64,000 nt of DNA from a virus (taxonomy: Duplodnaviria; Caudoviricetes), in IMG/VR virus record IMGVR_UViG_3300035498_000621, positions 1 to 64,000 of that record; one strand, written 5' to 3'. Under the pieces are notes generated by a model. It saw nothing but the letters and a program-made list of their open reading frames with translations. It did no database searches and was not told the origin of the DNA. Both the position numbers and the translations under genes were made by a program. Position 1 is the stretch's first letter. Each line of letters begins with the position of its first letter. This document shows positions 736-41,590 of this stretch, one piece after another.

Positions 736-804
736 TGTGTAAACATGCGTAAAAGTAATTAAATCTAATTAATGTGTAAAATTTCGTGAGAAAAATTACA
801 CAAA

Positions 805-875
805 AGACATTCTAGACGTCTATAACACACTCACTGATGAGGCTAGAACGAAACCCCTTAAAAAGGGGTCTGAGT
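805..875 (+). ncRNA. Type I hammerhead ribozyme 1
   Basis: Stem I ACTCA(829-833)/TGAGT(871-875), CTGATGA 834-840, G-C stem II, GAAA 850-853, stem III CCCCTT/AAGGGG, cleavage after GTC 870; loop II CTAGAA pairs with upstream hairpin loop TTCTAG (810-815). Confidence 0.92.
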
Positions 876-2049: not shown

Positions 2050-3030
2050 CATGATGCAGTATAAAAATACATGACCAAACTACTTCTGACGCCTATATAA
2101 GGAAGACTATTGGAATATTTTAATAACATTGGTAGGCAACCTAACAGCAGGGTTAAAGACGCTGTATATTCTATGAAATCCATGTAGAATATAACATGAT
2201 AAATGGTTGGCCCGCAGGAATACGACTGCATTAACTTCTATTTAACGAATCATGTAAAAATCCACAACATGAGGGTAAAATGGTGGTTGACAACTCGGAA
2301 AGACGAGTATTAATTATTTAACTTTTTAATTTATACAACATAGTAAGAATTTACTGCACTCTTAATGCCGTTACGCTGTTGAAGAGTATTGGGAAAATAT
2401 TATGTTGTAAAGTATATTTATTCAATTAAATATACTTATTATGTTTAACTTTTAATAAAAAGAATCATACTTCGCACCATTCCAGCGAATAGATGTTCAA
2501 CTTATATCTAGAATAAGTTCTTGTACGGGAAGTGGAATTGGTGGCTGTTCCAAATTAGCCAACGAAAAATCAGAAATACCTAGAGTAACTGGATATGGGT
2601 ATTTCAAATTATTATTTCTAGAATAATAATTATAAGTCTAAAATTGTCTATTTCTAGAGTTAGACTAAGGGAATATAACATGTATTCGCAAACCATGTGC
2701 GCATCCCTGAATTAAGTTTGCGATAACGGTCTTATTTGCAACGCCGTGAATATTTCGCTCAAAGTAAAGATAAGAGCCTTATACATAAATTTGTCAGCAT
2801 AAATATGTATTAAGTATCAAAACTGTCCAAAGGATTCAGGCGTACAGATCTACAGAATGGTGATGAGCTAGTCCATTCAAACTCAGTATTACGATGTGAG
2901 TATAAATAATATCGTACCAATTGACATGAGGAAATTGTCATAGTTTATTTAACTAGGAGTGACGTTAAATAAATGAAGATATAATCATAACTCAGTAATG
3001 TGTAAAAAGCAGCTACGTTGGTAACGTAAC
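2050..3030 (+). ncRNA. Long structured non-coding region (one or several ncRNAs)
   Basis: No credible ORF; several helices and pseudoknots (e.g. ATGCAGT/ACTGCAT, 2471-2542, 2881-2916). Confidence 0.4.
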
Positions 3031-3039
3031 AACCATGTA

Positions 3040-3119
3040 GAAGAGTATAGTCAATGTTGGTATTTGTACAAACTTTCTTCGAAAGTATAAGATCATGAGT
3101 TCGATTCTCATTACTCTTC
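3040..3119 (+). ncRNA. tRNA-like element with degenerate D/anticodon arms
   Basis: Acceptor GAAGAGTA/TACTCTTC, T-arm ATGAG-TTCGATT-CTCAT, central ACTTT-CTTCG-AAAGT hairpin. Confidence 0.6.
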
Positions 3120-3196
3120 CTAATTAAAATCCTTTAGCGAGGTGGGAGCTGTGCAACTCCTTTATCATCTGCACTTTATAAAAACTAAAATAACTT

Positions 3197-3322
3197 TCCA
3201 AGTTGTTGAGGACAGCCGTGTTCTCTAAGTCATTTTAAACATAACACTATAACTAAAAAACAACTAGTATATAGTAAAAATCGTGAGTAGCTCTCCGTAG
3301 TTATGGACCGAGTTTAGGCTGT
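3197..3322 (+). ncRNA. Multi-pseudoknot structured RNA / leader
   Basis: AGTTGTT/AACAACT, ACAGCC/GGCTGT, GTGTT/AACAC, ATAACTA/TAGTTAT pairings. Confidence 0.45.
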
Positions 3323-3345
3323 AAAACACAAAACAATTAACAATT

Positions 3346-3726
3346 ATGAATAAACAACAAGTATCTGACATAGAAGCTCTTGAAGAACTTAAAAAACATT
3401 TATCAGAACCCAGATGTAAAGTTTTTGATTACAAACTCGTAAAAGTTCTTGTTCCTTTTACTCAATGGGCAGGAATTTGTGTAGATTGGACAAATACAAA
3501 AATATCTACCGGAAAAGTAGCATGTATGTTTCTAAATAAATTTCATAGAAACATAATAATCAAATCTTTTGCTGAATTTAACAAAGAGCTCAATAAAGAA
3601 GAACCTGTTCTTATTGAAGCTTGTAATAATGAAACAGGTAATATTGAACAATTTTTTGTTCAAAAATCTAAAGACGGACTTTGTATTTATGCAGTAGGTG
3701 AAGATTATAAAATTATTGATTTATGA
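3346..3726 (+). CDS. Hypothetical protein
   Basis: 126-aa ORF, ATGA overlap with next gene. Confidence 0.75.
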   Translation: MNKQQVSDIEALEELKKHLSEPRCKVFDYKLVKVLVPFTQWAGICVDWTNTKISTGKVACMFLNKFHRNIIIKSFAEFNKELNKEEPVLIEACNNETGNIEQFFVQKSKDGLCIYAVGEDYKIIDL

Positions 3727-6178: not shown

Positions 6179-6209
6179 TTTGTAAATAGATATAATTTTA
6201 GTAAATTTG
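6179..6209 (+). promoter_or_regulatory. Bacteroidetes-type promoter for recoded gene
   Basis: TTTG 6179-6182, TAAATTTG 6202-6209. Confidence 0.6.
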
Positions 6210-7941: not shown

Positions 7942-7993
7942 CAAATGATCTCGTAACTCAGTTGGTAGAGTATTACACTTTAAACTAATTTTT

Positions 7994-8024
7994 TTTGAAC
8001 TTTCAAAGATTTAATTTATATTTG
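7994..8024 (+). promoter_or_regulatory. Intron-internal promoter for the endonuclease
   Basis: TTTG 7994-7997, TATATTTG 8017-8024. Confidence 0.65.
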
Positions 8025-8060
8025 TATATATAAAAGTTTAACAAATAAAAATTGAAAATT

Positions 8061-8705
8061 ATGAAATGGGATGAAGAAATAGAAAATTTAAAAAAATATG
8101 TATTTGTAGATAATCTTTCTTATGAAGAAATAGGACGTATGTATGAATGTTCTGGAACTAATATTAAGAAAGTAATGTAGAGAAGAGGTATAGAATTGCC
8201 AATTCGTTCCAAAAATGCAGGAAAAGAACCTGTAAATAAAGGAACTGGTAAAAAATATTATTGTTTAAATTGTGGAAAAGATATTACTTCTACAAAAAAT
8301 ACTACTCATAAATATTGTTCAAATAAATGTTAGCAAGAATTTGAATATAAATCTTGGGTAAAAAAATATAAACAAGATAATTCTATTGCAAAATCTACAA
8401 AATGGGGTTAGATTCCGTGCCAATTACGCAAATTTATTTTTAATAAATTTGAAAATAAATGTTGTGAATGTGGATGGTCTAAAATAAATCCATATACAAA
8501 TACAATACCTCTTGAAATTGATCATATAGATGGCGATTATACTAATAATGCTGAAGAAAATCTAAGATTAATTTGTCCAAATTGTCATTCTCTTACTCCT
8601 ACTTATAGAGGCGCAAATAGAGGGCATGGTAGAAATATAACTTGGACAATTAAAGGGGATAATAAGAGTGCATCTGAGGAAACTCAGAATGTAGAAGTGT
8701 GCTAA
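8061..8705 (+). CDS. HNH homing endonuclease (214 aa) with 3 in-frame TAG codons
   Basis: N-terminal HTH-like segment, CxxC motifs, LEIDHIDGDYTNNAEENLRLICPNCH; TAG at 8178, 8331, 8409. Confidence 0.88.
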
Positions 8706-8991
8706 TTCGGTGAAACTCCTAATAGATAATGCTAAGGACAACGCCGAGCTAAATCAGATATAAATCTGTAAATGTGTAGAGACTATATACACACATCCTA
8801 AGTTAAAAAATTTATTTTAATATGGATATTACATAGTCCAGACTACAACAATTTAATATTATAAAATGTAAGATTTCTTCTTTGATTTATAGTATTAAAT
8901 TGGTTACAGTAATGTAATGTAGTAAGTTAATGTAAGAGTCCTGGGTTCAAATCCCAGCGGGATCACTAAATTAATTTAAATAATATTAGAT

Positions 8992-13443: not shown

Positions 13444-13527
13444 GCCTTTGTCGCATAGTGGTCGATTGCACTGGATTTGTAATCCAGATCTGAAAAGACA
13501 TCGTGAGTTCGAATCTCACCAAAGGCT
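13444..13527 (+). tRNA. tRNA-Thr(TGT) with long variable arm
   Basis: GCCTTTG/CAAAGGC acceptor, CTGGA-TTTGTAA-TCCAG, 15-nt variable region. Confidence 0.85.
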
Positions 13528-13530
13528 CAA

Positions 13531-32968: not shown

Positions 32969-32999
32969 TTTGTTATTAGACTAAAATTTTATATATTTG
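32969..32999 (+). promoter_or_regulatory. Promoter for primase operon
   Basis: TTTG 32969-32972, TATATTTG 32992-32999. Confidence 0.7.
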
Positions 33000-36778: not shown

Positions 36779-36918
36779 TTTGAAATAAAAGAAAATATAT
36801 CTATTTTTGTATCACTAATCTGGAAATAAGATGGTTTTAATGCCAGATAATTTAACTAAAAATGTTAATAGATTTAACAAATATTACTTTAATAATTCAA
36901 TAGAAAGTAATATATTTG
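36779..36918 (+). promoter_or_regulatory. Tandem Bacteroidetes-type promoters
   Basis: TTTG 36779 + TATTTTTG 36802-36809; TTTA 36888 + TATATTTG 36911-36918. Confidence 0.6.
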
Positions 36919-41559: not shown

Positions 41560-41590
41560 TTTGTTATGTGCAAATAATTGTTTATATTTG
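41560..41590 (+). promoter_or_regulatory. Promoter for nrdD
   Basis: TTTG 41560-41563, TATATTTG 41583-41590. Confidence 0.7.

Follow-up and report, generated by a model that had tools for sequence, protein, structure and literature searches.

A probable mobile group I intron with an HNH endonuclease gene in the sole tRNA-Lys(UUU) gene of a phage with in-frame TAG codons

The locus described here lies in the first 64 kb of an IMG/VR virus record totalling 161,412 bp. This whole stretch of DNA, referred to below as the window, is AT-rich (22-33% G+C) and includes a tRNA array and a replication arm that is marked by helicase and primase genes. Several long open reading frames (ORFs) of the phage contain in-frame TAG codons, and a suppressor tRNA(CUA) with an extra arm in its variable region is encoded at the far end of the genome. 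Reading of TAG as glutamine would fit these features because the D arm of this tRNA resembles that of the phage tRNA-Gln(UUG). Upstream of the tRNA array are two RAGATH-1 hammerhead ribozymes (window positions 804-875 and 1122-1194), whose scores of 60.7 and 77.7 bits are both over the Rfam gathering score. Two other tRNAs of the window have lengths that are unusual for their types. These are tRNA-Thr(UGU) (13444-13528), which has 85 nt and a small extra arm in the variable region, and tRNA-Glu(UUC) (3041-3120), which has 80 nt and in which the D stem is weak and the anticodon stem odd.

The tRNA-Lys gene of this phage, which is the only one in the whole genome, is split between U34 and U35 of its anticodon loop, where the insertion is flanked by the stem TTACA/TGTAA (Table 1). 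Exon 1 ends with ...TTACA-CTT and exon 2 begins with TTAA-TGTAA, after which come the variable loop, the T arm, the 3′ strand of the acceptor stem and the discriminator A. CCA is not encoded. When the two exons are joined, ARAGORN recognizes a canonical tRNA-Lys(ttt). A run of T residues at the exon borders leaves some slack in the position of the cut, and we place the junction at 7980/8927 because this is the sole option that combines a U at position -1 pairing with the guide G, a G at the 3′ end of the intron and a CUUUUAA loop of 7 nt. The ligated junction is thus predicted to read ...TTACACTT joined to TTAATGTAA.... The split after U34 that was proposed in an earlier note on this DNA is borne out both by these spliced exons and by 13 intronless alleles that have the same junction (see below), and we regard a real tRNA-Lys gene, split by an intron in the manner described, as confirmed. 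The gene is missed in the window by ARAGORN at its default settings and by the Rfam tRNA model, just as the note had expected of standard scanners, and it is recovered by ARAGORN once introns are allowed.

Table 1. Positions of the features discussed in the text (window numbering unless the genome record is named)
Feature	Position	Strand	Remarks
tRNA-Lys(UUU) exon 1	7947-7980	+	Acceptor 5′ strand, D arm, stem strand TTACA, C32 U33 U34
Predicted group I intron, 946 nt	7981-8926	+	Rfam match, alignment of relatives, covariation, fold
Candidate promoter motif TTTG-N19-TAnnTTTG	7994-8024	+	36 nt 5′ of the HNH ATG
All TTTG-N19-TAnnTTTG sites in the window	6179-6209, 7994-8024, 32969-32999, 36779-36809, 41560-41590	+	Motif count
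Putative HNH homing-endonuclease ORF, 214 aa	8061-8705	+	phrog_10822 HNH endonuclease, E = 6e-20
Predicted internal guide sequence region	8663-8670	+	GAGTG 8666-8670 pairs with C7976-U7980; TAA at 8663-8665
P2 hairpin	8673-8688	+	GAAA tetraloop 8679-8682; 6 of 6 pairs with compensatory changes
P3	8697-8794 (8697-8701/8790-8794)	+	4 of 5 pairs compensatory; encloses P4 to P6a and the P7 5′ strand
P4	8707-8712/8742-8747	+	Inside P3; alignment and fold
P5	8717-8720/8735-8738	+	Inside P3; alignment and fold
P6	8748-8749/8776-8777	+	2 bp, inside P3
P6a	8755-8759/8764-8768	+	Inside P3; alignment and fold
P7 5′ strand	8779, 8781-8786	+	Inside P3
P7 3′ strand ATAGTCC	8833-8839	+	Pseudoknot with 8779 and 8781-8786
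P8	8795-8827 (8795-8798/8824-8827)	+	Holds CCTAAG 8797-8802 and TATGG 8821-8825
3′ domain	8842-8923	+	P9.0-like closing helix 8842-8846/8919-8923 (ACUAC/GUAGU)
Long AU hairpin	8849-8865/8886-8902	+	Within 3′ domain
Hairpin with GTAA tetraloop	8904-8917	+	Within 3′ domain, conserved
Terminal guanosine (omega G)	8926	+	Intron 3′ end GTAGTAAG
tRNA-Lys(UUU) exon 2	8927-8965	+	U35 U36 A37 A38, stem 3′ strand TGTAA, rest of tRNA
Suppressor tRNA(CUA), 88 nt	G000:C1 160755-160842	-	Far genome end, outside the window

The intron matches the Rfam group I model RF00028 at positions 8651-8859 with E = 2e-8 (a permissive search of a 1.1-kb stretch), which agrees with the class assigned in the earlier note, yet its score of 39.7 bits falls below the gathering score of 50. 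The intron consequently goes unreported by Rfam at the gathering threshold in the window, and RF00028 likewise does not report it when run on the whole genome. A low score of this type, together with a very long L1 loop, could be taken as a sign that the tRNA-Lys gene is dead, disrupted by an element that has decayed and lost the ability to splice. However, compact relatives of the intron also remain below the threshold (45.4 and 21.7 bits), so that low scores characterize the sub-family and are no evidence of decay. Furthermore, every core helix is intact and is maintained by compensatory changes across the relatives, the exons keep a perfect cloverleaf whose T stem carries compensatory changes relative to a close relative (L004), and the ORF within the intron is intact when TAG is read as glutamine. 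A dead gene thus seems highly improbable to us.

The architecture of the core was examined by aligning nine cores, whose hosts are tRNAs for Lys, Leu(UAA), Leu(UAG), Asn(GUU) and Arg(UCU), and by writing a structure of 51 pairs in 11 helices from the sequence of the window. All of the elements that had been named in the earlier reading of the sequence (a guide with a U:G pair, P3, P4, P7, a P9.0-like helix and a terminal G) were found. Paired cells make up 94.3% of this alignment, compared with 35-41% when the pairing partners are slid by one to three columns. Changes on both sides of a pair that preserve pairing occur in 31 of the 51 pairs, and none of 500 shuffles did as well on any covariation measure. 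In P3, in P6a, in P8 and in all three 3′-domain helices, every sequence that has letters at these positions is paired, and the terminal G is present in all nine aligned relatives. In P7, six pairs are invariant and the outer pair changes from GC to CG in three of the nine sequences; this helix is expected to be the one that binds guanosine. An unconstrained fold of positions 8658-8935 (z = -6.6) recovers nine of the 11 helices, namely P2, P3, P4, P5, P6a, P8 and those of the 3′ domain. The two that it misses are P7, as is expected for a pseudoknot, and the 2-bp P6.

The sequence also contains the elements for a predicted L2/L9 type of docking, which are the GAAA loop of L2, the CCTAAG/TATGG segments of P8 and the GTAA loop of the 3′ domain. 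We take the P8 segments to be the 11-nt receptor that classically accepts GAAA tetraloops and that is also present in the Azoarcus IC3 ribozyme. Presumably the resemblance to the Azoarcus intron extends to a small core seated in an anticodon loop, a P2 GAAA loop, a P8 receptor of the 11-nt type and, in the 3′ domain, a GNRA loop. We likewise assume the differences to be that the sequences are not close, that the host tRNA and the context of the insertion are other ones, and that the Azoarcus intron has no ORF. The long AU hairpin in the 3′ domain of the window intron would be an extra feature, judged from the published Azoarcus structure rather than from an alignment. The closing helix of the 3′ domain ends two bases 5′ of G8926. 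Its motifs and covariation mark the insert as a genuine group I intron of the IC3-like type found in bacterial tRNA genes, and it probably self-splices.

The guide sequence is located far from the 5′ splice site. No guide is found directly 3′ of this site, and the sole fit is provided by positions 8666-8670. Pairing of these nucleotides with the end of exon 1 gives a 5-bp P1 (CACUU/GAGUG) that places a U7980:G8666 wobble at the splice site, with a duplex energy of -4.5 kcal/mol, and P1 must close across a loop of 685 nt. The adjacent TAA can pair with the TTA at the start of exon 2, giving a P10 of at most 3 bp that is weak and that is absent in the related contig L005. In all relatives the guide adjoins the 5′ side of P2, and its sequence follows that of the exon. 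Exons ending with CUU (Lys, Leu and Arg hosts) are matched by GAG(UG), and exons ending with CUGU (Asn and Tyr hosts, in which the intron sits after U35) by GCAG. In L005, a guide of GAGUGC stands against an exon end of GCACUU.

With 685 nt separating the 5′ splice site from the guide, the HNH ORF fills the loop L1, a point that goes beyond the earlier note. In addition to the PHROG match listed in Table 1, the ORF gives hits to Pfam HNH_3 (22.0 bits) and HNH (17.6 bits), both of which are under the cut-offs. The encoded protein has a helix-rich N-terminal segment and a CxxC pair resembling a zinc ribbon, and the pattern CxxC...DH...N...CxxCH is conserved across four HNH homologues. The enzyme of the Synechocystis tRNA-fMet intron reportedly belongs to another family than the HNH protein of the window. 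A TTTG-N19-TAnnTTTG motif precedes the start codon by 19-36 nt in all four of the related HNH ORFs. This motif presumably corresponds to the promoter consensus of the Bacteroidota type, and it occurs five times in the window, always on the plus strand, compared with 0.95 occurrences expected. With an enrichment that is this mild, the five sites are candidate promoters of this type, and the copy upstream of the HNH ATG is a candidate for the endonuclease gene's own promoter.

Three in-frame TAG codons interrupt the HNH ORF at codons 40, 91 and 117 (8178-8180, 8331-8333 and 8409-8411). Codons 91 and 117 align with glutamine in the homologues of L005 and L007, and codon 40 aligns with a TAG in L005. 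The last 40 nt of the ORF (8666-8705) overlap the guide, P2 and the 5′ strand of P3, and its TAA stop codon (8703-8705) lies in the conserved J3/4. Ribosomes translating the ORF would therefore traverse these parts of the ribozyme. Because all three TAG codons are upstream of the core, ribosomes would instead halt before the guide when the suppressor tRNA is lacking. It is tempting to speculate that the TAG codons form a programmed ribosome brake, such that an early stop would permit folding of the intron and production of tRNA-Lys, and the later appearance of tRNA(CUA) would allow HNH synthesis and hinder splicing. We consider such a brake to be unlikely.

Several close relatives are informative about the mobility of the intron. 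In L004 the same tRNA is interrupted by a 472-nt intron in which the ORF is internally deleted and the core is kept at 94-98% identity. Its exon 1 does not differ from that of the window, nor does the beginning of its exon 2, and the T arm differs by the compensatory changes noted above. When the 9.6-kb L004 locus is compared with the whole genome of the phage, the only common parts are the adjacent tRNA-Gln gene and the cassette formed by tRNA-Lys and its intron, the latter with 94-98% identity. The cassette has therefore spread horizontally between genomes. Two further contigs (L005/L008 and L006/L009) have a tRNA-Lys(UUU) of different sequence that is split at the same place, and their HNH protein is 80% identical to that of the window. 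A related group I intron in L007 (1832-2758) splits a tRNA-Leu(UAG) after U34, has an HNH ORF in L1 and is enlarged by a long insertion in P6. The label tRNA-Phe(aaa) that ARAGORN gives to this gene is wrong.

The L007 contig also holds a second HNH gene (2992-3645) that is 63% identical to that of the window and has no ribozyme core. It is located between a tRNA-Lys(UUU)-like gene (2796-2882) with an insertion of about 19 nt and the 3′ half of a tRNA-Lys. Within the region 2759-3685, a 5′ piece (acceptor and D arm) at 2759-2783 matches this 3′ half. We considered whether these fragments form one split tRNA, and rejected the idea since the pieces give no clean tRNA.

The ORF-deleted copy in L004 bears on the question of whether removal of the intron depends on a protein, through maturase activity of the HNH product or a host or phage RNA chaperone, rather than on true self-splicing. 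Many group I introns require protein cofactors in vivo, and the Rfam-matched core of the window intron is AT-rich (about 32% G+C), with a short P1 and a weak P10, all of which would be compatible with such help. However, the core is conserved in L004 without an ORF, and the HNH protein thus cannot be an obligatory maturase in cis. Also, the two candidate tetraloop-receptor braces that can be recognized by sequence are typical of self-sufficient IC3 ribozymes. We consequently judge a requirement for protein to be decidedly unlikely and favor self-splicing.

Additional evidence comes from metagenome contigs that we scanned with the last 22 nt of exon 1. Thirteen contigs have an intronless tRNA-Lys allele. 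In all 13 the 22-nt sequence is followed directly by TTAATGTAAGAG, and in 12 of them by TTAATGTAAGAGTC, which is the predicted ligated junction. Three of these contigs (L130, L135 and L136) also have the acceptor end in common with the window. The alleles match the window in the tRNA only, and because their flanks are unrelated to those of the window they represent empty sites in other genomes. A before-and-after pair at one locus is ruled out by the same difference in flanks. A look for intronless alleles, as suggested in the earlier note, thus succeeded in the metagenomes, where the junction at 7980/8927 is seen. In IMG/VR, no intronless allele with the same exon 1 was found in close relatives. 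Presence of the cassette in unrelated genomes, deletion of the ORF in L004 and the many empty sites together correspond to the life cycle that is usual for homing introns. The intron is thus most likely a selfish homing element, and its homing probably proceeds by cleavage of intronless alleles by the HNH endonuclease.

The same observations can be weighed against a regulatory role, an extension of what the earlier note suggested, in which splicing of a real intron would gate the supply of tRNA-Lys(UUU) and the TAG codons would couple this supply to a late switch of the genetic code. AAA is the most-used codon of the phage at 8.0% of codons, which upholds the description of the genome as AAA-rich, and the split gene is its sole tRNA-Lys gene. 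The position of the three TAG codons, where ribosomes lacking the suppressor would halt before the guide, is also suited to such coupling, and a preprint (10.1101/2021.08.26.457843) proposes that a recoded intron endonuclease is made only late in other phages. However, the rank of AAA shows only that tRNA-Lys(UUU) matters to the phage. The same tRNA is commonly intronless elsewhere, the host cell has its own supply of tRNA-Lys, and the decay of the ORF in L004 and the movement of the cassette between unrelated genomes indicate a selfish life cycle. Gating therefore strikes us as improbable, and a selfish homing intron is the preferred reading. The connection with the PrrC anticodon nuclease that the earlier note brought up likewise found no support.

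How the intron relates to a wider family was examined by searching for its 21-nt J6/7-P7 motif with three positions left free. Matches were obtained in IMG/VR (at least 117 contigs) and in prokaryote metagenome-assembled genomes (MAGs; at least 120 contigs), and hosts were resolved by re-splicing under a rule that demands U(-1) and a terminal G. The resulting census is a motif-based sample that is biased by the motif and by the lower-bound nature of these counts, and some of the prokaryote MAG contigs may themselves be phage. Among the matches listed, almost all resolved cases are split tRNAs, chiefly Leu(UAA) split at 34/35. This host accounts for 73 of the 88 resolved viral loci listed, followed by Lys(UUU) with 6 (the window and three contigs), Leu(UAG) with 4, Asn(GUU) with 2, and Arg(UCU), Tyr(GUA) and the suppressor (CUA) with 1 each. 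Prokaryote hosts among the matches listed are mostly Leu(UAA) and Asp(GUC), and Lys accounts for none of the 60 resolved loci. The earlier note's view of tRNA-Lys as an uncommon host is therefore well founded, at least among the matches listed. The first anticodon calls made by ARAGORN in related loci (among others Phe, Ser, Thr and a second Lys in L024) mostly turned into Leu(UAA) after re-splicing. L024, L041, L046, L094 and L114 were dropped as tRNA-Lys candidates under the same U(-1) and terminal-G rule.

Other split tRNAs were observed during this search. tRNA-Asp(GUC) is commonly split after U35 by compact introns of the same family (183-229 nt) in MAG contigs of Patescibacteria and Gammaproteobacteria (L141, L146, L159, L161, L169, L176, L179, L191, L210, L221, L246 and L251). 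In L073 (7764-8054), exon 1 of a tRNA-Leu apparently ends with CUC, which would make the anticodon CAA and put C instead of U at position -1. Two more group I introns reside on the minus strand of the phage genome outside the window (G000:C1 73145-73495 and 75559-75796) and score 52 and 81.7 bits, over the Rfam gathering score. They belong to a different sub-family because they do not have the core motif of the window intron.

Among the matches listed, the nearest cores outside tRNA-Lys are Leu(UAA) introns, which are 70-76% identical and have the same GUAGUAAG end, and the 3′ end GTAGTAAG is common to many tRNA-Leu(UAA) introns. A move from tRNA-Leu(UAA) to tRNA-Lys(UUU) would be plausible because both exon ends read ACUU. 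By this similarity, descent of the Lys introns from those in Leu(UAA) is plausible, and the intron of the window appears to be a rare branch of a very large and barely described family in phages and bacteria that centres on tRNA-Leu(UAA). This family membership goes beyond the earlier note. With blastn, nothing similar was found in GenBank phages for either the core of the intron or a compact relative from Leu(UAA).

Like the classical tRNA-Leu(UAA) intron (Kuhsel et al. 1990, as cited in PMC3984707), the window intron sits between positions 34 and 35 after CUU and has the same core architecture, and its J6/7-P7 motif and GTAGTAAG end are found with tRNA-Leu(UAA) introns in dozens of viral and prokaryote contigs among the matches listed. 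Unlike the classical intron, which has no ORF, it occupies tRNA-Lys(UUU) in a phage genome and has an HNH gene in a 685-nt L1, and its P1 has 5 bp compared with about 3 bp in the Leu(UAA) relatives inspected. The Synechocystis tRNA-fMet intron (Bonocora and Shub 2001, listed as reference 105 of PMC3984707) is likewise a group I intron of a tRNA gene and encodes an endonuclease whose target is the region of the anticodon, but it is located on a bacterial chromosome in a different host tRNA and is free of recoded stops. The phage T4 introns in td, nrdB and sunY provide precedents for a mobile phage group I intron with a homing endonuclease gene, and in the 'Agate' phages in-frame reassigned stops are thought to delay an intron endonuclease (preprint 10.1101/2021.08.26.457843). 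The T4 and 'Agate' introns are in protein-coding genes, whereas that of the window is in a tRNA gene.

A parallel in phage tRNA genes is offered by the 'enigmatic', unclassified introns reported in the tRNAs of Lak megaphages by Devoto et al. 2019 (PMC6784885), who state that there were no earlier reports of introns in phage tRNAs. Those introns and the one described here are similarly found in tRNA genes of TAG-recoding gut phages and are missed by bacterial scanners. No Lak intron is described in tRNA-Lys, whereas the window intron resides in this tRNA, has the covariation of a group I intron and carries an HNH gene. In crAss-like phages, dense group I introns have been described from protein-coding genes (Yutin et al. 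2021, PMC7886860). In the literature searched, with most subscription journals outside its reach, we found no paper that classes phage tRNA introns as group I or places them in tRNA-Lys(UUU).

Taken as a whole, the locus is very probably a mobile IC3-like group I intron that is inserted between U34 and U35 of the sole tRNA-Lys(UUU) gene and homes by means of its HNH endonuclease. We infer the catalysis, the endonuclease activity and their timing to be as follows. The tRNA array would be transcribed first, and GAGUG (8666-8670) would then pair with the CACUU that ends exon 1, thereby positioning the U7980:G8666 wobble at the 5′ splice site. The core formed by P3-P8 and the P7 pseudoknot would be braced by docking of the L2 GAAA loop on the P8 receptor, and the GUAA loop of the 3′ domain could serve as a second brace. 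Once folded, the core would bind guanosine and cut after U7980. The P9.0-like helix would deliver G8926 to the same site, and joining of the exons would yield mature tRNA-Lys. Translation of the HNH protein would require the TAG=Gln suppressor tRNA of the phage, and the enzyme would most likely nick or cut the intronless tRNA-Lys genes of co-infecting phages, into which the intron would be copied.

The tRNA-Lys intron represents no new mechanism. Its importance relates in part to gene inventories, since neither tRNA scanners at default settings nor Rfam at its gathering score detect the sole decoder of the codon that this phage uses most. Because these defaults and thresholds miss such genes, the numbers of tRNA genes listed for large gut phages, crAss-like ones included, are too low. 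All phage introns known at the time of a 2014 review were in protein-coding genes (PMC3984707). With this textbook picture stands in contrast a set of at least 117 viral contigs that have the motif, in which almost all of the resolved cases are split tRNAs. The tRNA-Lys(UUU) case further suggests that the family can leave tRNA-Leu(UAA) for another tRNA whose exon ends with CUU. Finally, a copy that carries the ORF, a copy from which it has been deleted and many empty sites together offer a test system for homing between phages and for stop-codon recoding as a control of a selfish gene. If the ribosome brake considered above were real, it would tie homing, and perhaps also supply of the tRNA that decodes AAA, to the genetic-code switch of the phage.
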